This document shows positions 43,310 to 64,000 of a stretch of 64,000 bases of DNA, one piece after another (positions within the stretch are counted from its first letter, which is position 1; every line of letters begins with the position of its first letter). The notes beneath the pieces were generated by a model, which was given only the letters and a program-made list of their open reading frames with translations, made no database searches and was not told where the DNA came from. The translations under genes and the position numbers were made by a program. Where the stretch lies: positions 78,514 through 142,513 of the forward strand of contig JBGTCK010000038.1 of the NCBI GenBank assembly GCA_041748855.1. Direction: 5' to 3'. This stretch comes from Acidimicrobiia bacterium. Its GTDB lineage: Bacteria > Actinomycetota > Acidimicrobiia > Spongiisociales > ZC4RG35.

Positions 43310-43325
43310 AAAATATCCTTGGGAT

Positions 43326-44603: not shown

Positions 44604-44622
44604 GCCAACGGTCTAGCAGCTG

Positions 44623-47432: not shown

Positions 47433-47577
47433 CAGCCCCGGTCGTCGGAGGCCGTGTTCGCCGCGATGGGCATCCAGGCCACCGGTACCTAGCCCCAGGC
47501 GTAGTCGATCTGTTGGTTCTCAAGGGTTGGGCGACGGTCGCTACCGAATCGTTGATCGGTGCGAGTGTCTCGAAGGC

Positions 47578-48090
47578 TCATCGGTGTGTGCCATCGGTGG
47601 GCGTACGACGGGATCGGTTCACCGCCAGAACGGCGGTCACCGTCAAAGCGGCCGCGAAAAGTCCCGTCAACACCAGTTGAGGCCACGAGGAGACTGACCC
47701 GGTGACTGTGAACGGGTCCCATCTGTAATGCTGGTAGTTCTCGCTCATTTCGTAGAAAGCCACCGCATACGTCCCCGGCGGTACGTCCGGTATCTGGAAG
47801 ACGATGTCGTTCCGGAGCATCCGGCCTTCCGCCTCGACAAGAACGATCGAAGGGAGATCGGGGTGGTGCGGGTAGCCAACGGGGATGCTGCTCTGCGCTG
47901 CGTTCCACACCATCTTCCACGTCGAGAATTCGACTTCCACTCGGGTGCCCGGTTCGCCGAGCTGTGGACTCAGGCAGGGATCTGGCGAACAAAGCTCATG
48001 CGCCCACGCCACTCCGCCGAAGAGGCTGATCCAAAGGAGTAGCAGACAACCGGCTCCCAGATAACGCCACCGTCGCACAATCCAGCTCAT
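47578..48090 (-). CDS. hypothetical secreted protein with C-terminal membrane anchor
   Basis: Signal peptide (MSWIVRRWRYLGAGCLLLLWISLFGGVAWA), a beta-rich body and a C-terminal TM helix. No family recognised. Confidence 0.5.
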   Translation of the reverse strand: MSWIVRRWRYLGAGCLLLLWISLFGGVAWAHELCSPDPCLSPQLGEPGTRVEVEFSTWKMVWNAAQSSIPVGYPHHPDLPSIVLVEAEGRMLRNDIVFQIPDVPPGTYAVAFYEMSENYQHYRWDPFTVTGSVSSWPQLVLTGLFAAALTVTAVLAVNRSRRTPTDGTHR

Positions 48091-48259
48091 TCCTCTTAAC
48101 CGCTCATCCCGGGGAATCCTCTCGCGAAACCCGCCAGCCCTCATCTATCAGTATGACGTTTACGAGCCATGCGGGGAGGAAGGGCTTTCTGCATTTCACA
48201 GCACCTGTCGCCGTCGGATGTAGGGAACCCGTGGCGACGATTCAGAGTTAAATACCAGT

Positions 48260-49690
48260 ATGAATCGGCTGGCCGGTGCCATAGTTTTTTCCCTTGTCCT
48301 CTCCGCCTGCGTTGGGACGGCCTCTCCCACTGATGTCGCGGGTTCCCTGCCAGACAGCTCGACAACTCTGACAACTGACACATCCACATCCACCACCACC
48401 ACAAGCACGACTGCACCAGTGCCGCTCGCTGCGGGACGGGTTGGCCTCTACCAGGTCGATCCCCTCAGTTTGGAAGCGGTAGGGGGTGCTTCTCCGATTA
48501 CCACCGGAGATCGGCTGTATGGGACCACGTCGCAGAACGGGGAGTGGGTAGTGGTTACCGTTTGGATTGACACACCTGAAACCGACATGATCCGGGTGAT
48601 CAACGTGGCCGACCAAGCTGTTGTCTCGGAGACCAAAGTACTCGTGCCGACCGAGGCAGCGATCGCTGACAATGGTGTTGCGTACTGGTTGCATGGGGGC
48701 ATGGCTCCCTTCCTCCGATTACACCGCCTCAGGGTTGGAGAGGAGTCGTCCGAGCTGATCTTCAACGATTTCCCGCTCGGTTTCGAGAGTTGGTCGAGGG
48801 GCACGATTCTCGACAACGATCGAATCGCTTTCTTTGGGATCTTCGGTCCGCAGACCGACGAAGATGCACCCGCACTCGTGATCCTCGACCTGGTCAACTT
48901 GACGACAACGACGTATCCGTTGCCCGAGGTGATGGTGGGCGAGGGCGATCTGGTTGATTTCGGTGAGATCAGTATCTCGGAGTGGTTTCAGCCGGAAGTG
49001 GGATGGGATTCGGCCAGGAACATGGCCTACGTGGTACACGGGGATCGAGACGCTTTCACGGCGGTGGATCTGACAACTGGTGAGTCGAACACGCGTGACT
49101 GGGCACAGCCGACTTCTTGGCTAGGGCGGGTTCTCGCCTGGCTGATGCCTCCGGCACAAGCCAAAGGCCCGAACCTGGGCGCTCGACGAAGTGTTGGCCT
49201 CAGTTCAGACGGAGCGACGTTGTATGTCGGAACCACACGAAGCCACATCGAGACCGAGAGCGACACAGGACTGACCGCCGTCTGGGAACCGCAAGGCATC
49301 GTGGCCATTGATACCGCAACGGGCGACATGCGCCAGCATTGGTCGATCCCCGCCTCCGAAGTTCATCTTGCTCCGGGAGGCGAATACCTCGTGGCGACCG
49401 GGTTGACGGTCCGCGACTCGCTCTCCACCTCCAGCGCCGTCAATGAAGGTGCGTTTATCATCCACCTGCCCACGGGCGAAGTAACGGGACACATCCTCGA
49501 CGGCCACGTCAATGGAAACCAGGTCCAGTTCTCTTTGGCCGATGGAATCGCGTACCGGACCAACTACAGCGGCACGATAGAAGTCGTGGATCTGCGGACG
49601 GCCGAAGTGCTTTCCACTATGACCGGTGGGGAGTTGGCGATCTTCGGCGAAGCCGGACTCCTTGCCACAAGACAAACCAGATATAGGTGA
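48260..49690 (+). CDS. hypothetical lipoprotein (repeat/beta-propeller-like)
   Basis: Lipobox LVLSACVG, a T-rich linker and a 476-aa beta-rich body. No family recognised. Confidence 0.6.
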   Translation: MNRLAGAIVFSLVLSACVGTASPTDVAGSLPDSSTTLTTDTSTSTTTTSTTAPVPLAAGRVGLYQVDPLSLEAVGGASPITTGDRLYGTTSQNGEWVVVTVWIDTPETDMIRVINVADQAVVSETKVLVPTEAAIADNGVAYWLHGGMAPFLRLHRLRVGEESSELIFNDFPLGFESWSRGTILDNDRIAFFGIFGPQTDEDAPALVILDLVNLTTTTYPLPEVMVGEGDLVDFGEISISEWFQPEVGWDSARNMAYVVHGDRDAFTAVDLTTGESNTRDWAQPTSWLGRVLAWLMPPAQAKGPNLGARRSVGLSSDGATLYVGTTRSHIETESDTGLTAVWEPQGIVAIDTATGDMRQHWSIPASEVHLAPGGEYLVATGLTVRDSLSTSSAVNEGAFIIHLPTGEVTGHILDGHVNGNQVQFSLADGIAYRTNYSGTIEVVDLRTAEVLSTMTGGELAIFGEAGLLATRQTRYR

Positions 49691-49750
49691 TGGTCGGGAC
49701 CCAAGGATTCGAAACGCCGAGGGGGCGCTTGAACATCTTCGGCAGCCGGT

Positions 49751-49783
49751 TTCCCCGGCAGGATTCGAACCTGCGACACCGGG
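49751..49783 (-). other. orphan tRNA 3'-end fragment (T-arm plus acceptor 3' strand), att-like
   Basis: 23 nt (49753-49775, ccccggcaggattcgaacctgcg) are identical to 46677-46699 of the tRNA-Arg-like gene. No anticodon arm, D-arm or 5' acceptor strand can be folded upstream of it. Confidence 0.55.
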
Positions 49784-49881
49784 TTTAGGAAACATCGTCT
49801 CAATTCGGGGGGTCTCAACCCACCAAAAACCCAATGGATATAGGGGTTTTCATCACTCTAACTTTGCGGCCAACTTGGTAT

Positions 49882-49922
49882 CAGTTTGAGCCTCGATCTG
49901 CTTCATTTTCTAATCTGCGACC
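49882..49922. repeat. left imperfect direct repeat (putative attL) of the 12-kb island
   Basis: cagtttgagcctcgatctgcttcattttctaatctgcgacc aligns with 62032-62074 (36 identities, 5 mismatches, 2 one-nt gaps by hand). It is preceded by the hairpin ccaacttgg. Confidence 0.6.
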
Positions 49923-50047
49923 TATTGCACCAGTTAGGTATTCCTTGTCGCTTTATCTGGCTTCGTCGGCTGACGCACCTCCTCTGTGTGGCATCGATAA
50001 GAGCGGTGACTCGCACTGGGTAGAGGCTGACCTGCGACACTTGCAAC

Positions 50048-50950
50048 GTGGACATGCATCAGAACCAGCTCGGCGTCACGGTTGGCATGGTGCGGGAACT
50101 CGTCGTAGACCAGTTCCCGCACCTCGCTGCGAAGTCAATTACGGAGTTTGAATCGGAGGGCACTGTGAACTTGATCTTCCGGATCGGCACCGAACTCGTG
50201 GCGCGGTTCCCGCTTCAGCCTGGCCGGGAGGTCGAAGAGACTCGTGAGTGGCTGTTGTCCGAGGCCGAGGCAGCGCGCGTGTTGCTAGCCAACACGTCGT
50301 TTCCTGTGCCGGAGCCGGTGGGGATCGGCGAGCCTGGAGCTGGCTACCCACTGCCTTGGTCGATGCAGACGTGGTTGCCGGGCGTCACGGCAAGCCACGA
50401 AGACCCTGCCGGGTCGGTCGCCTTCGCGGAGAATCTGGCGAGCTTTATCGAGCAAGTCAGGTCGATCGAGACAGGTGGCCGAGTCTTCTCTGGAAGAGGC
50501 CGCGGTGGCGAACTAGCCTCGCATGACGAATGGATGGAGACGTGTTTCGCCGAGAGTGAGCGGTTGCTCGAAGTCTCCAGGCTCCGCCGGGTGTGGGCAC
50601 GGTTCCGAAAGCTGCCGAGGGAGTCCACTGATGTCATGACACACGGAGACCTCGTTCCCGGAAACGTATTGGTAGGCGACGGGCGACTCGTCGGAGTTCT
50701 CGACGTCGGTGGTCTTGGCCCGGCGGACCCAGCCTTGGACCTCGTCGGCGCCTGGCATCTCCTGGACAGAGAACCCCGGCGCCTCCTACGGGTTCGGCTC
50801 GGCTGTGGCGATCTCGAATGGGAACGCGGAAAGGCGTGGGCATTTGAGCAGGCGATGGGCGCGGCCTGGTACTACCAGCACAGCAACGAGGCGATGCACC
50901 GCATGGGCCTTCGCACGCTGGAACGGATCCTCGCCGAGGAGCCAGCGTGA
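50048..50950 (+). CDS. aminoglycoside/choline-kinase-type phosphotransferase (APH family)
   Basis: Brenner motif THGDLVPGNVLV, then GVLDVGGLGPADPALDL. 300 aa. Confidence 0.8.
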   Translation: MDMHQNQLGVTVGMVRELVVDQFPHLAAKSITEFESEGTVNLIFRIGTELVARFPLQPGREVEETREWLLSEAEAARVLLANTSFPVPEPVGIGEPGAGYPLPWSMQTWLPGVTASHEDPAGSVAFAENLASFIEQVRSIETGGRVFSGRGRGGELASHDEWMETCFAESERLLEVSRLRRVWARFRKLPRESTDVMTHGDLVPGNVLVGDGRLVGVLDVGGLGPADPALDLVGAWHLLDREPRRLLRVRLGCGDLEWERGKAWAFEQAMGAAWYYQHSNEAMHRMGLRTLERILAEEPA

Positions 50951-51071
50951 CTCGGGGCATTCCCGCACGCTGGCTGAGGGGGGCACTCAGTCACTAGAAG
51001 CGTCAGTCGTCTTGCTCGATCTCTGCGAGCATTCACGGTCAGGGATGCATGGAGAACTATCTTGCTTACCT

Positions 51072-51842
51072 ATGAGACGCAGAATTCGGGCGGTGGCTCT
51101 GGCTCTGGTCATCCTTACGGCGGGGTGCGAAGCAGACCCAGCAAGTGACACGACCCCAAGTTCGAGTGAAACGACCGCAACCAGGACTCCACTAGTGATC
51201 GAACCGATCACTACCCTTGCTTCCGAACCCTTGCCGATTGATGAGGTTCCGAGCAAGTTCGTCGAGGGTGAATTGGTCGCAGTGTTCGGTTTCTCGCTCG
51301 ACGATCAGGTGACTCTTTGGGATCTTCCAACCGACGACGACTATGCAGCTCCCACTCGAATGTCGGGACTCGTCGATCGCCAAGCCACAGATTTGGTCGC
51401 TTCAGGGATAGCCCAGAGTTGGGACGGTGGGCCTCCATGGGAGCATCTCAGTTCCAGCGAACTTGACTCGTCCGGGAACCCACAATATGGCGGGTACATT
51501 TCTGAAGACAAAGTGGGCTTCTTCGGAAGGACTGAGTTAGTTACCGATGAGGTCGCTGATATGTCCAACGAGCGAGCTGACGATCTCGGCGTTGAGGTAG
51601 CTCAGTTCTTCGCAGAAGTTGAAGGGTTGGAGGTCGTGCAGATCACACGACGCGAGCACCTCGGTCGCGAACTCACATTTGACCTGGTGGGCGGTATCGA
51701 CGAAGCAACGGCAGGTTGGCGAATCCACGTCGTCATGGAAGAGGACGGCGATCTGTTCCGAGTGGTTCAGGTGGAACGCACCTTGTTTTGTTGGTTCGCC
51801 GTCGATGAATCGGGCGCATGTGTGAGTGATCCCCGGTCGTAG
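51072..51842 (+). CDS. hypothetical lipoprotein
   Basis: MRRRIRAVALALVILTAGCEAD is a signal peptide plus lipobox. The upstream part of the tracked ORF overlaps the APH gene and was discarded. Confidence 0.55.
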   Translation: MRRRIRAVALALVILTAGCEADPASDTTPSSSETTATRTPLVIEPITTLASEPLPIDEVPSKFVEGELVAVFGFSLDDQVTLWDLPTDDDYAAPTRMSGLVDRQATDLVASGIAQSWDGGPPWEHLSSSELDSSGNPQYGGYISEDKVGFFGRTELVTDEVADMSNERADDLGVEVAQFFAEVEGLEVVQITRREHLGRELTFDLVGGIDEATAGWRIHVVMEEDGDLFRVVQVERTLFCWFAVDESGACVSDPRS

Positions 51843-51932
51843 ATTGCGTGGGTCGTAACCCCAAGGCACAAAGGACCATTGATCTGTCGGATCCCCCCTG
51901 TAGCCTGGGGATGTCATCTTGGAAGGAGACGA

Positions 51933-52595
51933 GTGGCGATCCCTGGCGAACCCGATCTAGGTGTGGGTGTCTACACCTTCAGCGAAGCTGCCACGATCCT
52001 CGGTAGAGGACCCGACGCGGTTACTTCCCGACAGGTCAACTATTGGATTCGGACTGGCCTCACCCCACCGAGCATGGAGGCGCTCGACCGTGGTGTGCTG
52101 TCCTTCCACGACCTCATCAGTCTCGAAATGGTGCGCCGGTTCAGGGCGCTCGGGGTCAGCCTTCAACGGGTCCGGTGGTTCGAGGAGCGCCTTCGCCACG
52201 AATACTCTGACCGGGTGCGACCGATGGCCTACGAAGTTTTCTTCACCGACGGGGCCACGATCTGGGCAAAGGAAGCGGGTGAGGCCGACAGCAAGTTGTT
52301 GGAGATCGTCGGTCGCCGACAGGACCACTACGTCTGGTCCGACAGCGTCACGACCTTTGCCATTGAGGTCGAGTTTGAGGAACAGTCCGGCGCGGCAACC
52401 TCCTGGACCCCGGCCCCCTGGATTTCGCTCGACCCTGATGTCCAATTCGGAACTCCAGTGGTAGCAGGTAGCCGAGTCCCGGTCAGGACTATCGGAGCCA
52501 ACCTGAAGGTTGGGGACCCCGAGCAGGTGGCCGATTGGTACGGCCTCACCATCAACCAGGTGCTGGGCGTGAGGGACTACCTCGCCGTCACCTAG
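51933..52595 (+). CDS. HTH (MerR-like) plus DUF433 domain protein, putative antitoxin
   Basis: GTG start 6 nt after GGAAGGAG. N-terminal VYTFSEAATILG..VNYWIRTGL is HTH-like. C-terminal DPDVQFGTPVVAGSRVPVRTI..GDPEQVADWYGLTINQVLGVRDYL matches the DUF433 pattern. Confidence 0.7.
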   Translation: MAIPGEPDLGVGVYTFSEAATILGRGPDAVTSRQVNYWIRTGLTPPSMEALDRGVLSFHDLISLEMVRRFRALGVSLQRVRWFEERLRHEYSDRVRPMAYEVFFTDGATIWAKEAGEADSKLLEIVGRRQDHYVWSDSVTTFAIEVEFEEQSGAATSWTPAPWISLDPDVQFGTPVVAGSRVPVRTIGANLKVGDPEQVADWYGLTINQVLGVRDYLAVT

Positions 52596-52626
52596 GTACG
52601 ACCGCCGCTTCTGTCTCGACGCGCAG

Positions 52627-53022
52627 TTGAGCTACAAGGTGGCCATGGCGCTCGACACCGTCGAGCAGCCAGTAACCCACGTCACCCAACTCTGCCCCGA
52701 ATACACCACCTCCACACCGGGTCAGAACCGGGCACCAGACGAACTCATAGCCGAGCGATGTGCGGACGGTCAGATTGTGCTGGTGACCGTGGACTCCGAC
52801 TTCAGGGGCCGGTGGCTACGAACAGGTGTCCTTGCTAATCACGGTGTCGAGGTCATCGTGTTCACTAAAGACCTCGAAGGTCTAGACCAACAACACCAGG
52901 TCGTCACCCGGTGGCTGCCGAACTGGAAGTCGGAACTCGGCAAGAAGCCGTACGGGTACCGAGTGTGGGATCAGCCGGTCAACCGGTCGCTCTACAGGCG
53001 TAAGTCGAAATACCGAATCTGA
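52627..53022 (+). CDS. DUF5615 (PIN-like, Mut7-C-related) protein, putative toxin
   Basis: DELIAERCADGQIVLVTVDSDF matches the DUF5615 core. TTG is the only in-frame start, yet domain-like residues RFCLDAQL lie just upstream of it. Confidence 0.6.
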   Translation: MSYKVAMALDTVEQPVTHVTQLCPEYTTSTPGQNRAPDELIAERCADGQIVLVTVDSDFRGRWLRTGVLANHGVEVIVFTKDLEGLDQQHQVVTRWLPNWKSELGKKPYGYRVWDQPVNRSLYRRKSKYRI

Positions 53023-53621
53023 CGGTCGGGAGAGGAGTGGTGGCAGTTCATTCGGAAGTGGCGTGCGGGACGGTCAGCCACATCGCAGGAGCAGTGGCTC
53101 CTCGCGGGCATGACTGTGGGGGAGTGGTCTGATTTCCCGTTGTGTTCGACGCACTCGCTAGAAGCAATGACTGGCCGCACGGCCTCCGAAGTTCTTGCTA
53201 GTCTCCAACTTCGTCTGAGTGGTGTCACATTCACACGAGACCCGCTTCGACATGAGAACCCCCAGAAGGTCAAGTCCAAACATCTCGTTTAGGAATCGGT
53301 CGGCTGGGGGTTTTCGCTCCTCTAGTCCTCGATACTCGGTGATGTTGAGAGATGCCCCTTGCTGGAGAGACCATCGGCTCAACCCATCTTGGCAGTGGCG
53401 ACGGGGTACTACCCCTTAAGTACTCCCTCCTTTGGAGAATTCTTGCGAGCGAACGGGGCTAAAACACGCCCTTACCGGTAGTCAGAAACTCCACCCGTAT
53501 CACGGTCCCCCAACCGTGTCAGATCGTGGCCCCCGTGTTCCACCCTGATGCTGTCTTACCGCACCTATCTCCTAGCTAAGGAGTGAATAAGGGAGTTACA
53601 CACCTCGGAAGGAGGCACACC

Positions 53622-53948
53622 ATGAATAGACAAATGCCAGATCTGATCGGGCAAGCCGTACGAGCAACCGACGGCCTGCTAGCCAAGAGCGTTCGATCCG
53701 GTCGCGACACTGACCGACTAAGGCTGATATCAATTGCGGAGACTGCAGCGATCTTGAGCTTGAGCCGGTCGAGCGTCAATCGGATTCTAAATTCCGGCCG
53801 TCTCCCGTCGGTGAGGATCTTGGGTAGCCGTCGGATTCGGGTACGCGATATAGAAGTGTTTCTCGATGATCTCGCAAATGCCGAGAAGCCCTCGGATGCC
53901 GTGGACTTCCCGTCCCACTCTCCCAGTCGATCAGCGAGGAGAAAATAA
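53622..53948 (+). CDS. excisionase/MerR-superfamily helix-turn-helix protein (Xis-like)
   Basis: ATG preceded by GGAAGGAGG. LISIAETAAILSLSRSSVNRILNSGRLPSVRILGSRRIRVRDIEVFL is the excisionase-family HTH pattern. Confidence 0.65.
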   Translation: MNRQMPDLIGQAVRATDGLLAKSVRSGRDTDRLRLISIAETAAILSLSRSSVNRILNSGRLPSVRILGSRRIRVRDIEVFLDDLANAEKPSDAVDFPSHSPSRSARRK

Positions 53949-54391
53949 TGCTGAACGTAGCCAGAAAGGTATATCGATTCCTTAGTTCATGGAGGCCCAC
54001 AATCAGAATTCATAGAGTTTTCGGAAATCGTGGTTCGTTGCCAAGAAGATACGGCATGGCACTTTCGACTTCCCTCCTCGTTCCGTTCTGTTCCGTGTGC
54101 AGACATGAGAGGGACCGACATCGAGACGACCGTCGCAAGAGGTGCAAGGCTGAATCATGTTTTTGTACCGGCTGGCAACTGGCGCTCTTTTCTGTGAGAT
54201 GTACATCGTGTGGACACCCGGTCACATTTCATCGACCGGCGGGCAAATGCCGGGCGCTGGGGTGCCGTCGATGTTCGCATCTGAAATTCAATGCGGTGAC
54301 GATCGACGTTATCGCCGATCATCGAGAAGGGAGACAAATGATGAGAATGAGCAAGATGTCGCCGAAAGGCGGGTCGAAGGCTAGAGATTGA
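53948..54391 (+). CDS. Cys/His/Arg-rich hypothetical protein (multi zinc-finger-like)
   Basis: Its start shares 1 nt with the Xis-like stop (TAATG). Motifs CSVCRH..RH, CKAESCFC, CTSCGH..FH and CRALGCRRCSH. About 50 percent GC by eye. The 3' end overlaps the Type ISP gene convergently by 11 nt. Confidence 0.4.
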   Translation: MLNVARKVYRFLSSWRPTIRIHRVFGNRGSLPRRYGMALSTSLLVPFCSVCRHERDRHRDDRRKRCKAESCFCTGWQLALFSVRCTSCGHPVTFHRPAGKCRALGCRRCSHLKFNAVTIDVIADHREGRQMMRMSKMSPKGGSKARD

Positions 54392-57300
54392 GCCGTGGGA
54401 GGGTGTCGATAATGTCGAGGGTCCGGATCGAGACACTGACCACTTGGCCCACCAGATCGAAGATGTACTTCGGGTTGCTATGTTCGATCGCCCAGTCGTT
54501 GGGGTCGTTGACGATGCCGGACTTCTTGTCTTTGCGGATTCGGTTGGTCTCCAACACCCAGTCGAGGGCGGAGCGGGAACCGAGCATGTACTCGTGGACG
54601 CGTTCTGGGATGTTCGAGATCGTGATGTTTTCGTTATATGTGATCGCCGTCTTCTCATCGTTGCAGTAGCGCATTTTGGTGACGCAATAGAGGTCCTCCA
54701 GAGAGGTGTCGAGTCCCTCAGCTACCTGGACTTCGAGGTCGCCCCAAGGATCGATCTCCTCGAACTCGGTGTGGAGCCGAGCCAGTTCTCTTCCCGCCCC
54801 GGCGAAAGTCCAGAATTCGTCGGCGGACTCAACTTGAGGAATGCGCGGAAGCGTCTTCTTTAAGTCGGCAACGTATGCCTCCCGGTAGTCAGGTGAGTGG
54901 AGAATGCCGTATACGTAAAAGAAGATGTCATCCTTCGAGATGCCGGAGTCGAGAGTCCGGTAGAGGTCCAGAGCGTAATCGGTGATGTTGTGGCGACGGG
55001 ATGGTTCTTCGTGTTCCAGAAGCGACCCCTGAGGTGTATCCGCCCCCGGCAAGTCGTAGGTATACATCGGAAGCAGGGCTGTGTCTCCGGACCACAGATG
55101 CAGATCAGCGATTGTGCTTACGGCCAATGCGGAGAACGGACTCCGAGTGTCGCGAATAGATACTCCGATACTTAGCTGCCTGGTGTCGTCGTCTGGGTAG
55201 ATCCTCGGCAACTGGTATGTCCTGTTGTTGAGACTAGGCCCCGCGTTGACATGTCTTCGGTGAAATGGGCGGTAAGCCCCCACCATGAAGCTCGCGTCGT
55301 CAAGGCTATAGTTCGTCCCCTGCACTAGACGGTTGAAGTCTGCCGCATCCCAACTCAACCTGAGCGGGTCGCGATCTACGACTTCCCTCGCCTGCCTGGC
55401 GCGCGCTGCCACTGTGCCTTTCGGGTCTGGATTGGCTCGGGAAAACTTCTCGACTTGTTCGTTGTAATGCGAAATCCACTTCGCAGTATTGGCTTCGAGT
55501 CTCGGGCGACTGGAGTTCCAGTTCCAGGCATCGCGGTTGGTCTTGAGACCGTTGGTGAGCACCTCGAAGATGGCAGGTTCATGGTCAGAATGGACAATCG
55601 GGTGTTCAGTGAAGGAGTCAGACCGCTGGTTGACCCAGTCTCCGTGCTCATTAGGTTCGATTCGGTGCCACACAATCTCATCGAGGTGGATTGGGGTCTC
55701 AGTCAGTTCACTAGTGAGGATTTCAAGTTTGCGGTTGCGGGTGAGGTAGTCACCAATATCGCGGTAATAGAGCTTGGCACCCCCAGCCGGGACTTCCCCC
55801 GAGTCCTTGATCAGGAGCATGATGGCGACGGTTGCACGGCTTCCCGCCCCGAAGACTTTTCCACCCTCTTCTCGGGAGCGTTCACCGGCGGTTCGCTGAT
55901 TGCCTCGGAGGTTGTAGATGTAGATGTGGTGGAACTCCTCGGCGAGCGTGAGCCGAAGTCCGTCGGCCGTGTTGCCGTCGATGTATCCGCCGTTGGTGAC
56001 ATAGCTCACAATTCCGCCGTGTTCAGAGGCCAGGATGCGGTCCGATGCCCAGCGGATAGCTCGGATATAGGAGTCGTACAGGCTGTTCTTGAGCTTGGCC
56101 GTAGAGCGTGCGGCGTATGAGGAGGTGATCGAAGCGTCAAGGGTGGGATAGCCCCGATTGGGAGCATTGTCGTTCTGGGAGTCCTGACCAGACGAGTAGG
56201 GCGGGTTGCCGATGATGACTCGGAGATCGAGATTCCTCTGCCGCTCAGCCCGCTGGTTGTTGACGGGGAAGACATCGAGCACTCCAGTGCCTTCCCCGCT
56301 CTCCCCCAGCTCAAAGGTGTCTGTGAGAACAATGCCCGGGAAAGGATCGTAGATGGGGTCGTTCTCGTCGTCGGCTGTGAGTTGCTTGTAGGTGGTTTCG
56401 ATGTTGACCGCAGCGATGTAGTAGGCGAGGAGGAGGAATTCGTTGGCGTGGATTTCGTCGTGATATTTCCGTTCGAGGTCGGTTGGGTCGATGTAGCCGG
56501 ATTGGAGGAGACGGGCAATGAATGTGCCGGTTCCGGTGAAGGGATCGAGGATGTGAACCCCTTTTCCCGACAGCGACGTGTCGAAGTGCTCAATGAGAGC
56601 GGCCTGGGTGGCGCGGATCATGAAATCGACAACCTCGACAGGCGTGTAGACGATGCCCAAGGAATCGGCGACCTGAGGGAACGCTTTCTTAAAGAACCGC
56701 CCGTAAAGGTCCTTGACGATCGTCTGGCGGGCCTGCCCATCGGACGGCGGGATGCCTTCGACTCGACGTTGCACCGAGCGGTAGAAGTCATCGAGATGGC
56801 GAGTCTCTGTGTCCAGGTGGTGATCCTCCAGGACTTGGACCATCCGATCCATGGTTTGGGCGACGGGGTTGTTGGCCTCGAATACGTCTGACCCAAACAG
56901 CGCATCAAAGATCGGAGAGGTAATGAGGTGCTGGGACAGCATGGCGATAGCGTCCTGGTGGGTGATCCCATCGTTCAGGATCGAGCGCAGACCAGAGACA
57001 AAACGGTCGAACTCAGCGGCGACCTCCCGATCAGAGTCCAGGATGTTGGTTATGCGGTCGCGCTGACGGTTGGCGATGTCCACGACATCGTCGGCCCAGT
57101 CCTCCCAATAGGTACGGGTGCCGACCTTGGTAACAATCTTGGTGTAAATAGCCCCCACCCAGTCCTCGTGAGAGAAGAGCCGGCCTTGAAGAGCTTCGGT
57201 GTCAGGCTCACCTTCCGGCTCGTCGATTTCAGATTCGGGCGGGTTGCCATCGAGAATCTCAATCGGAGCATCCGGATCATCGCCCAAGTCCTCGGAACGG

Positions 57301-59300
57301 AGAGCAATACGGTTGATATAGGCGTTGAATCGTTCGTCGTGAGACCGGAGGGCCTGGAGAACATCCCAAACAACGTCGTAATCCGAATTGCGGTCGAGTG
57401 CGGACGATGGGTCCTGTCCAACGGGTATGGCGATGGGTAGGATGATGTAACCGATCTCCTTGCCCGGTGGCTTCCGCATCACCCGACCAACTGCCTGGAC
57501 AATGTCGATCTTTGACCGACGGGGTTTCAGGAACATGACCGCGTCCAGCGCAGGTACGTCAACACCCTCGGTCAGACACTTGGCATTGGTCAGCACGCGG
57601 CACTCGCCGGGAGGTGGTGACTCTTTGAGCCAACGTATGTCTTCCCGACGGGAGGCAATCTTGTCGGTCCCATCAACATGCCGGGTCGGCACACTGATCG
57701 GTTCGTAGTCGATGTTGGAGACAGCGTTCTCTCGATTGAATTGATCGGCAACCAAGGAGAACTGTTCTGCGAAACGAGCCGATTCGGATATCCGCGACCA
57801 GAAAGCCACGGCCCGTTGCATCGGTGGCTCAGAACCAGTGAATCCCGACTTACCGCTCCTTGAACGCAGCTTGGCTAAACCTGAAAGGCAACCGACGAAC
57901 TTGGCTACGTCCGGCAGATTTAGCTCTCCATCGGAAGACAAGAGCTGTTGGAAAGATCGGGAGATCGACTCCTCCTCAACGGTCAGGATCAGCACCCGAT
58001 AGTCGGCCAACAGCCCCTGCTCGACCGCCTCCCCGAAACCGAGACGATAAAACTCGGGGCCGAAGGTCTCAGGATCGTCCATCGAAGCGACGATCACATC
58101 GTTCTCCGCCGCATCCATCTTGGCAGCAGCCCTGTACACACGCGGGGTAGCCGTCATGTAGAGACGCTTGTGGGCGGGGACGACCGAATCATCGTGAACC
58201 TTGACAAAATGACTGGCACCATCGTTGGCATCAGACGTGCCTGCCGTACGGTGGGCCTCATCCCCGACGATCAAGTCGAACACGAGACCCGAGGCTTTCT
58301 GGAGATCAGCCACAACCTGGATTGACTGGTAGGTGGAGAAGATCACCGTCATGGTCTCGGGATCTGACTCGGCAGCACCAGCCGATCGAAGTGACTCCAT
58401 ATTGGTCGTTGGGGGTATGGGCAGGTCATAAGGAGCCGCGTTGTCCCCTTTGATCTGCTGTCCTGCTGTAGCGTCTGAGCAGACTGCGAAGGGCCTGATC
58501 GGAGTCTCACACTCAACGGTCCACCCTTTGAGAGCCTGTGAGACGAGAGCGATCGACGGGGCAAGGAACAGCACTGTTCCGCCAGCGCCCACGTGATCCT
58601 CGGCGATGCGCAGAGCCGTCAGAGTCTTGCCTGTGCCGCATGCCATGATCATTTGCCCGCGGTCGGTTTCGCCGAACCCGGCCCGCACCTTCTCGGCCGC
58701 GACCACCTGATGAGGCCGAAGTTGCTTGCGAGGTGTCTCGACAAGGTCGGTGACTCTGTCAGGATCGAACTGAGACCAATCGACCGACATCGCATCCAGG
58801 TCGTCGATACCGATTCGCACCACCGGAATCTGCTGGCGCTCCAAAGCCTTCTCAGCGTGCCTCGACCAGCGATCTGTGGTGGACACGATGATCCGCTCAG
58901 AAAACGGCTCTCGTCCCGACGCGGTGAAGAATGAGTCGATGTCCGCCTTCACCAACGTGTGTTCCGGGTGATAGAACTTGCACTGAATCGCTACAAGGCC
59001 ACCGTCAACAGTCTTCGCCACCAAGTCGATACCGGTGTCCGGTTCACCCACCCGGTCCGCCCAGTCCATCCACAGCCACACATCCGTGAACCGCTCCCGG
59101 TAGGTGCGGTCAGTCCTGAAAGCCGACAGGATCAATCGCTCGAAGCGATCCCCGAGGTCACGAGAGCTAGTCGCCCGCAGGCGAAGAGTGTCCAGAACAT
59201 CGGTAGCGGATTTAACGGGAGTCGTCGTTGTCGTCGTGTTTCCATCCACGGTGGGATCGTAACGAAGGTTCCTCCACGGCCTCGACAATCCTCCGCGCAT
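54381..59300 (-). CDS. Type ISP restriction-modification enzyme (Mrr-like nuclease, SF2 helicase-like ATPase, N6-adenine MTase, C-terminal specificity domain)
   Basis: In order: a PD-(D/E)xK-like block TGIDLVAKTVDGGLVAIQCKF; Walker A MACGTGKT; DEAH box VGDEAHR; MTATPR; motif VI QAVGRVMR; SAM motif ILDPFTGTGTF; catalytic IIGNPPYSSGQ; then about a 550-aa C-terminal region. The single-polypeptide architecture resembles LlaGI/LlaBIII. Confidence 0.85.
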   Translation of the reverse strand: MRGGLSRPWRNLRYDPTVDGNTTTTTTPVKSATDVLDTLRLRATSSRDLGDRFERLILSAFRTDRTYRERFTDVWLWMDWADRVGEPDTGIDLVAKTVDGGLVAIQCKFYHPEHTLVKADIDSFFTASGREPFSERIIVSTTDRWSRHAEKALERQQIPVVRIGIDDLDAMSVDWSQFDPDRVTDLVETPRKQLRPHQVVAAEKVRAGFGETDRGQMIMACGTGKTLTALRIAEDHVGAGGTVLFLAPSIALVSQALKGWTVECETPIRPFAVCSDATAGQQIKGDNAAPYDLPIPPTTNMESLRSAGAAESDPETMTVIFSTYQSIQVVADLQKASGLVFDLIVGDEAHRTAGTSDANDGASHFVKVHDDSVVPAHKRLYMTATPRVYRAAAKMDAAENDVIVASMDDPETFGPEFYRLGFGEAVEQGLLADYRVLILTVEEESISRSFQQLLSSDGELNLPDVAKFVGCLSGLAKLRSRSGKSGFTGSEPPMQRAVAFWSRISESARFAEQFSLVADQFNRENAVSNIDYEPISVPTRHVDGTDKIASRREDIRWLKESPPPGECRVLTNAKCLTEGVDVPALDAVMFLKPRRSKIDIVQAVGRVMRKPPGKEIGYIILPIAIPVGQDPSSALDRNSDYDVVWDVLQALRSHDERFNAYINRIALRSEDLGDDPDAPIEILDGNPPESEIDEPEGEPDTEALQGRLFSHEDWVGAIYTKIVTKVGTRTYWEDWADDVVDIANRQRDRITNILDSDREVAAEFDRFVSGLRSILNDGITHQDAIAMLSQHLITSPIFDALFGSDVFEANNPVAQTMDRMVQVLEDHHLDTETRHLDDFYRSVQRRVEGIPPSDGQARQTIVKDLYGRFFKKAFPQVADSLGIVYTPVEVVDFMIRATQAALIEHFDTSLSGKGVHILDPFTGTGTFIARLLQSGYIDPTDLERKYHDEIHANEFLLLAYYIAAVNIETTYKQLTADDENDPIYDPFPGIVLTDTFELGESGEGTGVLDVFPVNNQRAERQRNLDLRVIIGNPPYSSGQDSQNDNAPNRGYPTLDASITSSYAARSTAKLKNSLYDSYIRAIRWASDRILASEHGGIVSYVTNGGYIDGNTADGLRLTLAEEFHHIYIYNLRGNQRTAGERSREEGGKVFGAGSRATVAIMLLIKDSGEVPAGGAKLYYRDIGDYLTRNRKLEILTSELTETPIHLDEIVWHRIEPNEHGDWVNQRSDSFTEHPIVHSDHEPAIFEVLTNGLKTNRDAWNWNSSRPRLEANTAKWISHYNEQVEKFSRANPDPKGTVAARARQAREVVDRDPLRLSWDAADFNRLVQGTNYSLDDASFMVGAYRPFHRRHVNAGPSLNNRTYQLPRIYPDDDTRQLSIGVSIRDTRSPFSALAVSTIADLHLWSGDTALLPMYTYDLPGADTPQGSLLEHEEPSRRHNITDYALDLYRTLDSGISKDDIFFYVYGILHSPDYREAYVADLKKTLPRIPQVESADEFWTFAGAGRELARLHTEFEEIDPWGDLEVQVAEGLDTSLEDLYCVTKMRYCNDEKTAITYNENITISNIPERVHEYMLGSRSALDWVLETNRIRKDKKSGIVNDPNDWAIEHSNPKYIFDLVGQVVSVSIRTLDIIDTLPRLNL

Positions 59301-59523
59301 GGAGCGTCATGGCCATCCTCACTGGGCCACACCGACTACCACATCACTGGCCCCCCTCGATCAGGTGAGCATGGTGCTGACCCCAATCGACGCAGCCTGG
59401 AGCAAGAGCATGTGGTCACACACCTGGAAGGACGGAGGTAGCAGATACCAGCCATGTCATCCACCACGCTCCCCATCACGGGGTCATACTCCCTTCACCT
59501 CGACAATCAATTCAGCTTTCGTA

Positions 59524-60540
59524 TCAATGACCTCTCTCTCTTAGAGCTTCGACAATCCTCACTCGAAGTTCCTCACGGACCGGAGCCAGGGCTTCTCGAT
59601 ACCGCTCTGGAGCGTCACCGGGGAGGTATTGCAGAATGGCTTGCCTGCACAGTTCCCGACCGGCCTCAGGATCAGCGAGGAGCGCATTCGCCTCCACCTT
59701 GCGCGCTCCGTAGTTGGCCAGGTAGTCCTGGACCCACTCCTCCTTGTGCTGTGGGTGAGAGGTGCTGGCTAGGTTCTTCCCCGATCCGGTGATCAGGTTC
59801 TCGATCCACACCAGGGGATGCTCAGGGTTCTCGATGTAGGTCACATCGAGTCCGAAGCGATCAACGTAGAGACTGGTCGGCTCCCAGCCGACAGCACCAG
59901 CCAAGTCCATCATGTTCGATTTCAAGTGGTCGGAGATTCGGAGACCTCCCGGATCGAAGTCACCGAAGTAGAGGAGGACCACCTTCTTGCCCTCACGCTC
60001 TTTCTCAGCGAACCGCTCCATCATTTCGGCCCTGACGTTCAGGTCTGCCCAACCTGAGACGTTGGCAATCGGAATGTGATAGCGACTACACACCTTTGTA
60101 AATAGGCTCTTGAGGTCAGTCTTCTCCACCGCCATCTGGACGTAGGTGTCCTTGTCATCCCAGAACGAGAACGGCTTGTACGACATGTGGGCGTTTTCCA
60201 CGTAGCCGATGATGCTCTCGGCCTCGGACTCGATGTCACCATCGACCCACCCGACGTTGGACCACTCCCGCTTGGAGTCAGGCGCGGTGATGTCCATCGG
60301 GAGGGTTCCATCCTTCCGGCAGTTGTTGATCGTCCTCTCCACCAAGTTGATGTCGCCCTTGTCGATGCTCCCCAGCCCTTCCAGGTAGTAGCCCCATCCC
60401 CGAGCCGACATCGAGAAATCGGTTCTCGATGCGATTTCCCGAATGTCCCTAGCGAACTGGCGCATTGCCTCGTCATGCTCATCCTGCTTGGCAGCCGATA
60501 ACGCACCACGGCCACGACGGGGGAGGATGACCTCACTCAT
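59524..60540 (-). CDS. stand-alone Topo VI-A/Spo11-like protein (5Y-CAP-like plus Toprim; Mini-A/JetD-related)
   Basis: ARGWGYYLEG (R..YY), MAVEKTD (Toprim Glu), SGWADLNVRAEM (cf. G-Y-P-D..R) and LLYFGDFDPGGLRI (DxD), in the order seen in type IIB topoisomerase A subunits. Its ATG overlaps the upstream stop by 8 nt. Confidence 0.6.
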   Translation of the reverse strand: MSEVILPRRGRGALSAAKQDEHDEAMRQFARDIREIASRTDFSMSARGWGYYLEGLGSIDKGDINLVERTINNCRKDGTLPMDITAPDSKREWSNVGWVDGDIESEAESIIGYVENAHMSYKPFSFWDDKDTYVQMAVEKTDLKSLFTKVCSRYHIPIANVSGWADLNVRAEMMERFAEKEREGKKVVLLYFGDFDPGGLRISDHLKSNMMDLAGAVGWEPTSLYVDRFGLDVTYIENPEHPLVWIENLITGSGKNLASTSHPQHKEEWVQDYLANYGARKVEANALLADPEAGRELCRQAILQYLPGDAPERYREALAPVREELRVRIVEALRERGH

Positions 60541-60817
60541 CGAGATCACCCACCTCCAGGTACTCATCAATCTGATCGAGGTCGAATCCGTACCAGGCTT
60601 CTCCCAAGATCACCGCGTCGCTGTTGTAGGGATCGACCAGCCGATAGGTGCCGTAGCCGAGAGCTTTGGGGTCGCGCCGTCTCGACTTCTGTAGCTGGAG
60701 ACCCTGACGGTCGGCCATCCTTCGGACCCGATTCTCGTAGACCTCTAATTCGGCCTCCGACATCTCATTGACATCCAGCCTCTCATCTGTGGCTCCCGCC
60801 ACTTCGACCTCCCTCAT
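60533..60817 (-). CDS. small hypothetical protein (acidic ends, basic core)
   Basis: 94 aa, with core RRMADRQGLQLQKSRRRDPKALGYGTYRLVD...GFDLDQIDEYL. It is translationally coupled to the Toprim-like gene. The family is of unknown function. Confidence 0.5.
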   Translation of the reverse strand: MREVEVAGATDERLDVNEMSEAELEVYENRVRRMADRQGLQLQKSRRRDPKALGYGTYRLVDPYNSDAVILGEAWYGFDLDQIDEYLEVGDLDE

Positions 60818-61190
60818 CGAATACTCCTGTTCTGATAGTTCTCATTGCCATGAGACACGTGTACAGGAAGTGAGGCTGGTTGTCACTCGAAGAATTCTTA
60901 TAAACCCCAGGTCAGAGCCAGAAAAAAAATCCTCTCATTCCCCCCCGACTGCTCAGAACATGGGGTCGATCGTGAAGCCCGCCCTGGGTCTAATTACCTC
61001 GCGGTTCCGCGGGAGTTTCGATGATCGAAGGGCAAGGGCCGTGCGAAAAGGTCCTTATCGGAATGTCCGTGGGCGGAGAGTAAGGGTCTTCTTCAGGTCA
61101 CTCAAGCTGTGAAGCTTCTCCCGGAGAACCTCCTTGGCGTATCAATATCTTCAGTTACTGTTACACCCCAGGTAGAGAGGTAGGGGTTGA

Positions 61191-61877
61191 TTGAAGCTTG
61201 TCGGCTATTTGAGGGTTTCGACTGCGAGTCAGGTCGATGATGGCCAAGGACTGGAGATCCAAGAGGAGACGATTCGCGGGTGGGCCAGGAGACATAACCA
61301 CCGAATTGTCCGCTGGTATCGAGACGAGGGTGTATCCGGATCCTCGGAAAGCCGCGAGGGGCTGGAGGATGCCCTCATGGCTATCAAGTTCAATGGTGCT
61401 GATGGTATCGCCGTAGCTTCCCTCGATCGGTTAGCGCGCTCCCTTACGGTTCAAGAAGCCGCTCTTCAGCAAGTCTGGACATCTGAAGGGCGTGTTTTCA
61501 GCGTTGACACTGGTGAGGTGGTGCGTGATGATCCCGATGATCCAGTTCGCACATTCGTCAGACATATTCTCGGCGCAGTCTCACAACTGGAAGCTGCAAT
61601 GATCGCCCGTCGGCTAAGACGGGGTCGGACACATAAGGCAGCATCAGGTGGCTACGCGCACGGTGCGCCTCCATTCGGCTACCGGGCTGAGGGTGGACGG
61701 CTGAATACCTTCCCGACCGAGCAAAACGTGATTCAGCTAATGATGGAAATGCGAGAGGCAGGTTTGAGTTTCAGGCGTATCGCCGAGCAGCTGAATAGTG
61801 ACGGCTTCGTTGCTAAACGTGGTGGTCGATGGCATCCCCAATCCGTAGCCAGAGTCATCGCAAGGGACGCGGAGTGA
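61191..61877 (+). CDS. small serine recombinase (resolvase/invertase family)
   Basis: MKLVGYLRVSTASQ (catalytic Ser), WYRDEGVSGS, SLDRLARS and a C-terminal HTH GLSFRRIAEQLN. TTG start. Confidence 0.9.
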   Translation: MKLVGYLRVSTASQVDDGQGLEIQEETIRGWARRHNHRIVRWYRDEGVSGSSESREGLEDALMAIKFNGADGIAVASLDRLARSLTVQEAALQQVWTSEGRVFSVDTGEVVRDDPDDPVRTFVRHILGAVSQLEAAMIARRLRRGRTHKAASGGYAHGAPPFGYRAEGGRLNTFPTEQNVIQLMMEMREAGLSFRRIAEQLNSDGFVAKRGGRWHPQSVARVIARDAE

Positions 61878-62031
61878 ATCTCGCCCAACCTCCGCGACAA
61901 CGGTCACATCTGTCCCACCGAGTCGGCGTAAGCCTTGGGGCAAGACTGTCGTCCAACGGATGACGCTCTGGCGCAGCGATGTCCAGCAACACGACATTGC
62001 AGATCGAGTTCGGTGCGCCCTCCTGGCAACC

Positions 62032-62074
62032 AGGTTTGAGCCTTGATTTGATTCATTTTTTAATCTTCGAACCC
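62032..62074. repeat. right imperfect direct repeat (putative attR) of the 12-kb island
   Basis: caggtttgagccttgatttgattcattttttaatcttcgaacc is the partner of 49882-49922. It overlaps the hairpin cctggcaaccagg. Confidence 0.6.
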
Positions 62075-62427
62075 GTGCCCGGGCGATGTGTGCCGATCAG
62101 TTGCGATCTCGGATGTGGGCGAAATCGCTAAGAACTGGTGATATGGAACGCCCCCTTGGGGGGCGATTACCCCATATAGAAGACCTCACGGTCCTGTCGC
62201 GATGCTAGATCCGAACAGTTGTTCGGGCTACTCTCGGTCCGGTGAACTGTCCGTTCGAAAAAGCGATCGTTCACCTCTGCTCTCAGAGCACGATTGCATA
62301 CCGGGGCTATCGCGGTTGACCGCTATCGATTGGGCCGATCGTCGCAGGTGATTCCCTGGTCGCTTGGCCCGGACCTAAGTTTCGAAAACAACTCTGGCGA
62401 CCGCTCTTAGCCCGTCAAGCAATCTGG

Positions 62428-62898
62428 TCAGCCGAGGCTTAGCTCGATGTGCCAGCCGTCAGCCTCAAGGTCGGCGTGCGTGAACGTCGGTGCTTCACGG
62501 CCAGCTACCTCCACTGTATAGAAGGGAGCTTCACCGATCAGGTCCACTTCGAAGATGAAGCGGCACGTCGTATCGGACCACTCACCATCAGGTGGGATGT
62601 GGTACTCGCCGCGGCCCAAGTCGCCCACGCCAAGAGTGTTCCCATCTCCATCCAGTGCTACGACATTGGCACCTTCTGTAAGGTCCTCATAACCTCCCTG
62701 GCCCCAACATAAGGTTTCCCGATCACCGTCAAAACCTCCGATCGGAAGATCGACGGTGCCAGTCAGCCCGATCGTCGTGGCCGTGGTAGTTGTCGGCTTA
62801 GGTGATGCCGTCGTTGTGGCAGCGACCTCGCCACCACAAGCTGTCAAAGCGATGAGGAGCATGGCCAGTGATCCTGCAGTGGTATTTCTAACCTTCAC
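62428..62898 (-). CDS. hypothetical lipoprotein
   Basis: Lipobox LIALTACGG, a T-rich linker and a beta-rich body. Confidence 0.6.
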   Translation of the reverse strand: MKVRNTTAGSLAMLLIALTACGGEVAATTTASPKPTTTTATTIGLTGTVDLPIGGFDGDRETLCWGQGGYEDLTEGANVVALDGDGNTLGVGDLGRGEYHIPPDGEWSDTTCRFIFEVDLIGEAPFYTVEVAGREAPTFTHADLEADGWHIELSLG

Positions 62899-63138
62899 AA
62901 CAACAGACTAGGACGAGGGCGGATGGCGAGTGACCTGATCTGTTGAATGAGCCATTGGCCAAGCCGAGGTTGTCGGGGGTAAGTGCCGCTCGTGCAGACC
63001 GATCGGTGTCGTCGCCACGGTCCCCACTCAACGGCGAGACCTCGGTGGCTCTGTAAGGAATCTCAACCGGATTCGGGGCGTACCTGCCGGCATTTGAAGC
63101 AGCTACCGACGAAAATCGCCCGTTTCCGTGGATACGCA

Positions 63139-63564
63139 ATGCTTATCATCGCAGTGATGGAGATGACGTACCAATGGCGAGGAAGCTTCTCGAACGGGGA
63201 GGTCAACAGGCTCCACGCTGACGCATTCGAGCATCGGGTCTACGACCCGGCGGACTGGAACTGGGAGCAGCTCGTCCACGATCACAGCCTAGGTTGGGTC
63301 GTGGCCCGTGAGGGAGACGAGCTAGTGGGATTCGTCAACGTCCTCTGGGACGGCCTCGTCCACGCCTGGATCCAAGACACCATGGTGGCCGAGCGTGCCC
63401 GACACTCCGGCATCGGAACCAGACTGATCGAAGATGCCAGGGACCATGCGAAAGCAGCTGGCTGCGAGTGGCTCCACGTCGATTTCGACGATCACCTGAA
63501 GAAGTTCTACATCGACGCGTGCGGTTTCAAACCCGTAAGCGCAGGTCTGATCGATCTGGCGTAA
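63139..63564 (+). CDS. GNAT-family N-acetyltransferase
   Basis: VAERARHSGIGTRLIEDARDHAKAAG acetyl-CoA motif. Start at ATG 63139 or 63157; the upstream part of the tracked ORF was discarded. Confidence 0.75.
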   Translation: MLIIAVMEMTYQWRGSFSNGEVNRLHADAFEHRVYDPADWNWEQLVHDHSLGWVVAREGDELVGFVNVLWDGLVHAWIQDTMVAERARHSGIGTRLIEDARDHAKAAGCEWLHVDFDDHLKKFYIDACGFKPVSAGLIDLA

Positions 63565-64000
63565 ACCACTCTCCGCAGACCGACTTGCGGGGGAGTGTGA
63601 CTGCCCTTTAGAAGCAGAAGGCCCGGGGCTACATTCATGCGACCTTGATCGGTGTCTCCGCCACGATCATCACCGTCATCGCTCAAATCTGATGGTCATT
63701 GCCAAGGAAGACCGGACCTTCCTGAGAATCAAGCCCAGTAACAACGCCCCGCCTCTTGACCGAAGCCAGTAGGCGGGGTTAATGTTGTTGGCACGTTTGA
63801 TGCTGATGGCAATCATAGATGGTTGCCGGTGAGACGGCATTTTCATTGAAGGAAATGTTATGTCTTACCAAGGCAGAATTGGTTACCCTGGATCCCTGAT
63901 CGATGTATGCGATGGAGATACCGCACTGGCCCTCGTCATCAGCCAGATGGTCCACAAACATCCCGATGAGACCGTCAGGCCAGAGATCTATGAACGGGGC

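Follow-up and report, generated by a model that had tools for sequence, protein, structure and literature searches.

A repeat-bracketed defence gene segment with a compact serine recombinase in a variable, tRNA-Arg-linked region of an Acidimicrobiia genome

We analysed a 64,000-nt stretch of the genome of an uncultured Acidimicrobiia bacterium (assembly GCA_041748855.1, contig JBGTCK010000038.1, positions 78,514 to 142,513; hereafter the window). Within it, a 12.15-kb segment of defence and accessory genes is delimited by a pair of imperfect direct repeats and carries a serine recombinase gene of 228 amino acids (aa) at its right-hand edge. The reading that we favour, tentatively and at a little under an even chance, is that the segment is a non-autonomous defence/accessory cassette lying in a composite island at a tRNA-Arg hotspot, and that the recombinase acts at a palindrome close to its own promoter.

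A preliminary description of this DNA had proposed the imperfect direct repeat pair, and we located its two strings at 49882–49922 and 62031–62073. The ungapped core lies at 49884–49920 and 62034–62070 (37 nt, 32/37 identical, 86%), and a gapped alignment reaches leftwards to 49865 and 62014, giving 57 columns at 77% identity. In this extended form the left repeat, which is AT-rich and non-coding, occupies 49865–49924 and the right repeat 62014–62074, both on the plus strand. The pair was the highest-scoring direct repeat in a self-comparison of the 44–64 kb region, at 44 bits, and was judged against 200 dinucleotide-preserving shuffles of that region (mean 28.0, standard deviation 2.1, maximum 38.3 bits). 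Such a self-alignment was the check that the preliminary description had named. Because 44 bits exceeded the score of all 200 shuffles, the direct repeats are real and stand above background. A degenerate pattern spanning both repeats matched twice in the window and in none of 100 shuffles. No copy of the repeat sequence was found in 1.9 Mb of related loci or in IMG/VR. The right-repeat junction is also present in a Logan contig (L001).

We infer that the repeats are most simply the attL/attR attachment-site (att) scars of a conservative site-specific insertion, since the target duplications left by transposition are far shorter than 43–57 nt and since there are only two copies. The alternative that they are not att sites, and instead represent a small intergenic element whose two diverged copies bracket the cassette by chance, was also weighed. 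Such an element could be promoter-like (TTGAGC-17-TCTAAT/TTTAAT) or the relic of a local duplication. It would suit the intergenic, AT-rich location of both copies and the hexamers with sigma-70-like spacing that can be picked out by eye in each, although a simple promoter scan does not call either of them. The GC shift described below does not fall at the repeats, and there is no comparative evidence for an empty site; on the other hand, the sequence occurs only twice in 64 kb and not at all in the 1.9 Mb of related loci, and the interval between the repeats coincides exactly with the block of defence and mobile-type genes. The identity of 77–86% over 37–57 nt, which includes the putative spacer, argues for common descent rather than convergence. 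On balance, we regard chance bracketing by an intergenic element as improbable.

Other explanations of the repeat sequence were tried and rejected. Simple promoter and terminator scans gave no reason to treat the repeats as either kind of signal, and as a coding duplication they would offer only the 16-aa and 50-aa open reading frames (ORFs) that their minus-strand ATGs open. No tRNA or other Rfam match was found on either repeat. The hairpins that had been described beside the repeats did not survive analysis: when the 81 nt surrounding either copy were folded as DNA, the z scores were +0.34 and −0.47, which are not significant, and the two hairpin palindromes occupy different positions relative to the repeat.

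The segment had also been described as an A/T-richer island bounded by the repeats. Its GC content is indeed low (0.5795 between the repeats against 0.615 for the core at 1–46673, in which no 12.1-kb interval has a GC content below 0.606), but the low-GC block is not delimited by the repeats. It starts at ∼46.7 kb and continues at ∼0.58 to the end of the window, on either side of both repeats (0.581 at 46753–49752; 0.575 over the 1.9 kb at 62075–64000). Within the segment, the GC content of third codon positions (GC3) is a mosaic, with values of 0.70–0.74 for the APH gene, the toxin–antitoxin-like (TA-like) pair, the Type ISP enzyme and the Toprim-like gene, and of 0.53–0.58 for the recombinase, the HTH_17 gene, a 147-aa gene and a lipoprotein gene.

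The left 46 kb of the window are ordinary chromosome, with ksgA, ispE, tRNA-Gln, glmU, prs, sorbosone dehydrogenase, GDPD, YqeY, LigD and Ku. Two close relatives of this stretch were obtained through the 90%-identity clusters of YqeY and LigD: a stromatolite metagenome contig (L171) and an Acidimicrobiia metagenome-assembled genome (L172, GCA_040881735.1). Both have 88–90% nucleotide identity to window positions 34284–46552 and then carry wholly different genes, synteny ending right after Ku, at 46552 (intervals compared: 46552–46848 in the window, 12254–17627 in L171 and 10676–13176 in L172). The absence of the same DNA from the same site in close relatives was seen for the larger region after Ku only. 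Because the two relatives diverge there into different genes, the point directly after Ku is a hypervariable hotspot, and all of the window DNA to its right is accessory. As low GC starts at ∼46.7 kb and the relatives lose synteny after Ku, the 12.15-kb segment does not stand alone in core DNA but forms one module of a larger, composite and variable accessory region, which measures at least 17 kb. The original island reading thus stands in so far as there is a discrete block of variable DNA with statistically real flanking repeats, a defence/accessory cargo and the sole recombinase gene at its edge; what changes is its setting, since variable DNA of low GC content, in which remnants of tRNA-Arg genes also occur, surrounds the block and extends over at least 17 kb in total.

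The first of these remnants, a tRNA-Arg(CCG)-derived unit at 46672–46848 on the minus strand, lies where the variable low-GC region begins. Positions 46673–46722 show 100% identity to the 3′-terminal 50 nt of an intact tRNA-Arg(CCG) in L171, while the 5′ part is degenerate; the unit scores 38.5 bits as an Rfam tRNA, has mismatched acceptor pairs and is rejected by ARAGORN. The same 177-nt unit is present twice in L172, on either side of a histidine-kinase gene. The second remnant, at 49753–49793 on the minus strand and 72 nt to the left of the left repeat, is the 3′ half of a tRNA-Arg(CCT), comprising positions 30–70. It is broken at the anticodon loop and has 95% identity to the intact gene in another locus (L025); the 5′ half is not present anywhere in the 64-kb window. 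The two remnants have a 30–38-nt direct repeat in common, and they bound not the 12-kb segment but a neighbouring 3-kb module at 46953–49690, which encodes a META-domain protein, a 188-aa protein and a 476-aa protein. Remnants of this kind are typical of serial integration. The breaking of tRNA 3′ halves at the anticodon loop is given as a classic signature of tyrosine integrases that target this loop (Williams 2002, as cited in PMC3218068). A hidden Markov model for tyrosine integrases, built from 12 integrases of related loci, matched none of the ORFs of the window (E ≤ 10) and nothing in the 46–64 kb interval translated in all six frames.

The broken tRNA-Arg(CCT) raises the question of whether the boundaries of the element lie elsewhere. 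In this alternative, a larger recombinase-bearing element inserted into the anticodon loop of tRNA-Arg(CCT) and split it; the part in the window would extend from 49797 to beyond 64000, and the 43–57-nt repeats would be internal. The window has positions 30–70 of the tRNA alone, and the contig with the closest recombinase homologue (L002, 74% aa identity) ends with positions 9–38 (17738–17767, minus strand), which are complementary to the 3′ half in the window. In both, the tRNA similarity stops at the same anticodon-loop sequence, TTTCCTAA, in the same orientation relative to the recombinase, and neither the window nor L002 has a tyrosine integrase. In a further locus (L118), a tRNA-Arg(CCT) 3′ half lies 720 nt downstream of the recombinase. 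These cases number two or three in all, however. The window does not reach the 5′ half or the far end of the element, L002 does not include the host flank, and a tyrosine integrase of the class that leaves such 3′ halves could lie beyond 64 kb. Moreover, the palindrome beside the recombinase, described below, is intact in the window and L002 and is 9–11 kb from the junctions, which argues that it is not the crossover site in either. An element that splits the tRNA therefore seems to us a rather improbable account.

Two further candidates at the tRNA-Arg(CCT) junction were rejected. A group I intron is not indicated, as neither the window nor L002 contains a second tRNA half near enough and there is no Rfam match. 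The window junction and the 5′ flank of the tRNA in L025 have 14 nt in common in inverted orientation, a match judged to be chance because this flank is not conserved in L008 or L026.

The recombinase gene, at 61191–61877 on the plus strand, is intact and has a TTG start. As had been described, it lies just inside the right repeat; it ends 153 nt before the right repeat as first delimited and 136 nt before the extended one. The protein comprises a catalytic domain (PF00239, 3e-28) followed by the first half of the ‘Recombinase’ domain of large serine recombinases (LSRs), residues 175–225 matching positions 1–51 of PF07508 (2e-8). Its classification as a small enzyme of the resolvase/invertase type fits its size and catalytic domain but not its C-terminus, where Pfam reports the LSR domain and no helix-turn-helix (HTH) family of the resolvase type. 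The best NCBIfam and curated matches are to the N-termini of CcrB, XisF and CcrA; among the PHROGs the matches are to phrog_95 integrase (2e-50) and to ‘DNA invertase’ (4e-29), and in the PDB to the TP901-1 catalytic domain, Gin, and Bxb1-like and SPbeta integrases, with gamma-delta, Tn3 and Sin also matched. Residues R8, S10, D79 and R80 are invariant in 20 homologues. A search returned 1016 homologues at E ≤ 0.001, the best 120 of which are mostly 220–245 aa in length and mostly metagenomic, and belong to Acidimicrobiia where named. The gene is not a truncated LSR pseudogene, as the homologues are all of about 225–245 aa and no LSR C-terminal, zinc-ribbon or coiled-coil remnant was found downstream in any frame. 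From its domain matches, the protein is best described as a ‘half-LSR’ rather than as a resolvase or invertase.

We next consider the DNA immediately upstream of the gene. An imperfect palindrome of the form TGTAAC..N..GTTACA, followed by a CCCAGGTAGAG motif, occupies 61132–61180 (plus strand), 10–60 nt upstream of the recombinase start, and is conserved across the family (nhmmer E 2.3e-6 with a site profile built from 13 loci). Alignment of the upstream DNA of the window with that of three homologues at 68–74% aa identity (L002, L005 and L006) gave the palindrome TGTAACAGTA-N8-TAnnGTTACA, followed by CC(G/C)CAGGT(C/A)AG, and the palindrome and CAGGTCAG motif are kept upstream of homologues at 40–74% identity. 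A second and weaker copy of the motif (TTATAAACCCCAGGTCAGAG) lies at 60884–60918 on the plus strand, 250 nt upstream of the strong copy and in direct orientation (nhmmer E 0.033). In the distant homologues, down to 40% identity, the site overlaps a leaderless promoter, TTTACA-17 nt-TAnnnT, 6–7 nt before the start codon. In seven of these loci (L150, L148, L167, L142, L137, L095 and L106) the promoter has the form TTTACA/TTGACA-17 nt-TAnnnT, with an unusually conserved spacer (CCGCAGGTCAG); the motif occurs 4.7 times in every 100 kb of the recombinase loci, compared with 1.0 in control loci from Acidimicrobiia.

There is one copy of the site per homologous locus, and between the window and L002, L005, L006 and L089 only the gene and its upstream site are common, with no neighbouring gene shared. 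A site kept throughout the family means that the DNA-binding specificity of its recombinases is conserved as well. The palindrome at 61132–61180 is probably the cognate binding site, either an operator or a res-like site overlapping the recombinase promoter. The site profile has no match at either direct repeat, even at E ≤ 100, and the repeats do not resemble the DNA that this recombinase family recognises. A partner palindrome at the island ends, as for an inversion or resolution pair, was sought with pattern, fuzzy and nhmmer searches, which returned the sites at 61132–61180 and 60884–60918 alone; a candidate copy at 50026–50036 (minus strand) had an E value of 6.

The company that the family keeps in other genomes bears on its role. 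Downstream sequence of at least 1.5 kb is available for 39 loci, and in 7 of these the recombinase is directly followed by a tyrosine integrase; such an integrase occurs somewhere in the available sequence of 15 of 83 recombinase loci. One of these loci is a tRNA-Ile island (L096) with 70-nt repeats and its own tyrosine integrase, in which the recombinase sits mid-island beside a DNA methylase; another (L107) combines tRNA-type repeats of 44 nt with a degenerate tyrosine integrase. In a locus with SIR2 and Type I restriction-modification (R-M) genes (L169), a 517-aa large serine recombinase lies 3.4 kb from the small one. Since tyrosine or large serine integrases accompany the recombinase in other loci, the family is often a passenger and behaves as an accessory module carried by islands. 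The accessory genes listed for the tyrosine-recombinase tycheposons likewise include small serine recombinases (bioRxiv 10.1101/2020.12.28.424599). The family is rare in IMG/VR (4 loci).

Near-perfect inverted repeats bracket the recombinase gene in two loci (L089, 6011–6039 and 6931–6959, 29 nt; L127, 136–175 and 2015–2054, 40 nt), suggesting an insertion sequence-like or invertible unit in some family members.

Taken together, we favour the view that the 12.15-kb segment is a horizontally acquired cassette, one module of a composite island region that would extend from 46.6 kb to beyond 64 kb and would have accumulated at a tRNA-Arg-linked hotspot downstream of Ku. A circular element may have recombined through an AT-rich intergenic sequence of ∼45–60 bp common to the element and its target, leaving hybrid attL and attR sites as the two repeats; the five substitutions and the indels between these would reflect attP/attB differences or later decay. 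The inserting enzyme would not be identifiable in cis. The half-LSR enzymes travel as a gene-plus-site unit, and the recombinase would bind its own palindrome and not the repeats, for autoregulation and/or to resolve multimers or tandem copies of the element in a res-like manner. We infer from this an accessory role for the recombinase and a cassette that is probably non-autonomous, resembling a cis-mobilizable element (CIME) or a decayed integrative element that may be fixed or may be moved solely by an integrase supplied in trans.

Several observations weigh against this interpretation. Neither the segment nor the rest of the 64-kb window encodes a second recombinase, and the segment also contains an Xis-like HTH_17 gene. 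The gene lies 136–153 nt from the right repeat, so that in a circle the repeat would adjoin its 3′ end; a repeat beside the 3′ end of the integrase gene is the usual int-attP geometry. The loss of an integrase with both att sites left intact would need a tidy deletion. No other integrase was found within 7–10 kb in the four closest homologous loci (L002, L005, L006 and L168), and in L005 the recombinase lies just within one end of an 8.6-kb interval bounded by a 28-nt direct repeat (26/28 identical). Finally, a genome with the empty site was not found by flank-protein look-ups or a GTDB scan, which yielded no sufficiently close genome covering the junctions.

These points lead to the suggestion, made in the preliminary description, that the recombinase is itself the mobility gene. 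The 228-aa enzyme would then be the integrase/excisionase of the 12.15-kb element and would act on both repeats, either in the manner of the phiRSM small serine integrase or by resolvase-type deletion between sites in direct orientation, and the HTH_17 protein might be its directionality factor. Its catalytic residues are intact, it is the only recombinase in cis and it lies at the extreme end of the segment beside the right repeat; its closest curated relatives (CcrB, XisF, CcrA and phrog_95) are integrative/excisive, phiRSM provides a precedent for the integration of a replicon by a small serine recombinase (Askora 2011, as cited in PMC3218068), and an Xis-like gene is at hand in the segment. 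However, the repeats have no similarity to the conserved site of the family and, judged by eye, only weak internal dyad symmetry. The comparable repeat-plus-recombinase edge in L005 is double-edged: that repeat is unrelated in sequence to the one in the window and lies on the opposite side of the recombinase gene, even though the upstream palindromes, and hence the binding specificity, are conserved. Its E value of 0.003 is also unremarkable after ∼35 loci were tested. For attP x attB selection, large serine integrases rely on zinc-ribbon and coiled-coil domains, neither of which is present in this protein, and other integrases often accompany the family. The part of the original claim that holds is thus the position of a sole recombinase at the segment edge; its action on the repeats is possible but unlikely in our estimation, and is not the reading that we favour.

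The segment and its recombinase were also compared with known systems. Like composite tRNA islands and CIMEs, it is a repeat-flanked cassette beside other modules at a hypervariable locus, with tRNA 3′ remnants, a defence/accessory cargo and no cognate tyrosine integrase in cis; unlike them, its repeats are not tRNA-derived and a serine recombinase stands at its edge, and mobilisation of the segment in trans is hypothetical. Tycheposons (bioRxiv 10.1101/2020.12.28.424599) similarly combine a small serine recombinase with a site-specific, tRNA-linked cargo island integrated by another recombinase, but they belong to a different phylum, and the likeness is drawn at the level of gene class. The Ralstonia filamentous phage phiRSM, as far as it is described by Askora et al. 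(2011) as cited in PMC3218068, has in common with the segment a small serine recombinase as sole recombinase, direct repeats at its ends and a tRNA remnant nearby. It differs in that the window repeats are 43–57 nt and are not tRNA sequence, and in that the window protein is LSR-like at its C-terminus and known from sequence alone. Where an att core of the phiRSM type is the tRNA 3′ end, the tRNA-Arg(CCT) half in the window lies 72 nt outside the left repeat.

Among recombinases, the large serine enzymes (CcrA/B of the staphylococcal cassette chromosome element SCCmec, XisF, TP901-1, Bxb1 and SPbeta SprA) give the best matches, over residues 1–225 and including the start of the recombinase domain (GGYAxGxPPxGY ... 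KRGGRWHP), and SCC elements, like the segment, are bounded by short direct repeats. These enzymes are 440–650 aa in length, against 228 aa here, and the window protein has neither the second half of the recombinase domain nor a zinc ribbon, a coiled coil or a downstream remnant of them. With the Tn3/gamma-delta resolvases and Hin/Gin invertases the protein shares its size class and catalytic domain, together with a palindromic site immediately upstream that overlaps its own promoter, as in res/tnpR. In contrast to these, its C-terminal DNA-binding part is not a resolvase HTH, and there are one strong and one weak site, no transposase and no invertible segment.

If the favoured reading is correct, the segment represents an ordinary pile-up of defence genes in a tRNA-linked hotspot, and an annotated case from the poorly studied Acidimicrobiia. 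The more interesting by-product would be the compact half-LSR family travelling with a conserved palindrome of ∼50 bp over its own promoter, and the recombinase family is the part of the finding most worth following up. We found no description, in the literature searched, of this family of 220–245-aa proteins (1016 at E ≤ 0.001, mostly from Actinomycetota/Acidimicrobiia metagenomes). That it might be a distinct class of autonomous integrases is doubtful; in that event the window enzyme would have inserted, and could excise, the cassette through the 43–57-bp repeats, or else, with its L002 relative, would target the tRNA-Arg(CCT) anticodon loop, in either case without a zinc ribbon or coiled coil. 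Half-LSR enzymes that integrate or excise DNA alone would constitute a minimal serine-integrase scaffold, which would bear on the evolution of directionality and possibly on genome engineering.

The cargo of the segment had been listed as an APH-like kinase, a TA-like pair, an Xis-like HTH protein, a Type ISP R-M enzyme and a Spo11-like module, and profile matches support every item. From the left, the plus strand encodes an APH-family phosphotransferase (50048–50950; PF01636, 1.6e-28), a predicted lipoprotein with a signal peptide and LTAGC lipobox (51045–51842; GC3 low, 0.57) and a TA-like pair (51879–53022) consisting of a MerR-HTH/DUF433 protein (51879–52595) and a DUF5615 protein (52627–53022). 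These are followed at 53583–54391, also on the plus strand, by the HTH_17 excisionase-like protein (53583–53948; PF12728, 1.2e-9; phrog_66 excisionase, 6e-9) and an overlapping gene for a 147-aa protein without known function. On the minus strand, a full-length Type ISP R-M enzyme of 1639 aa (54381–59300) has a Mrr-like nuclease, a helicase, a coupler, a methyltransferase and a target-recognition domain. Adjoining it is a two-gene Toprim-like module of unknown role (59524–60817, minus strand), the Spo11-like module of the earlier list, which comprises a 348-aa Toprim/topoisomerase-VI-A-like protein (59524–60570; phrog_6247 ‘DNA topoisomerase’, 8e-53, with weak JetD/Toprim matches) and an overlapping 94-aa partner (60533–60817). 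A plasmid or phage origin for the segment was rejected, there being one trivial 65-nt plasmid match and only 4 recombinase homologues in IMG/VR.

The search for the empty site gave some information about the right flank. Exact look-ups of the flank proteins returned the same sequence alone, including a Logan contig of 7.4 kb. A GTDB scan with the GNAT protein of the right flank returned 80 Acidimicrobiia loci at 57–72% identity, with no synteny; in 3 of the 80, an intact tRNA-Arg(CCT) lies 1.6–2.9 kb from the GNAT gene, which is suggestive but not decisive. Removing the 12.15 kb in silico places the tRNA-Arg(CCT) half 1.19 kb from the GNAT gene, which is compatible with an insertion between the two, but the relative orientation differs and we do not rely on it. 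On the left, a homologue of the 476-aa protein of the neighbouring 3-kb module lies in an unrelated context (L173).

Some minor features were noted in passing. In L002, 49–56-nt direct and inverted repeats at 12119–12174 and 13622–13677 (GGTTCGGTATTC...GAATACCGAAC) flank an AAA_25 (RepA-like) gene and may be an origin or iteron-like. In a distant Acidimicrobiia locus (L074, 8950–10400), the homologue of the window sorbosone dehydrogenase (41004–42347) directly adjoins a GNAT homologue, whereas the two are 21 kb apart in the window. Lastly, a tandem repeat with a 171-bp period occupies window positions 12329–12708, its copies being 97.6% identical over 209 nt by self-BLAST.

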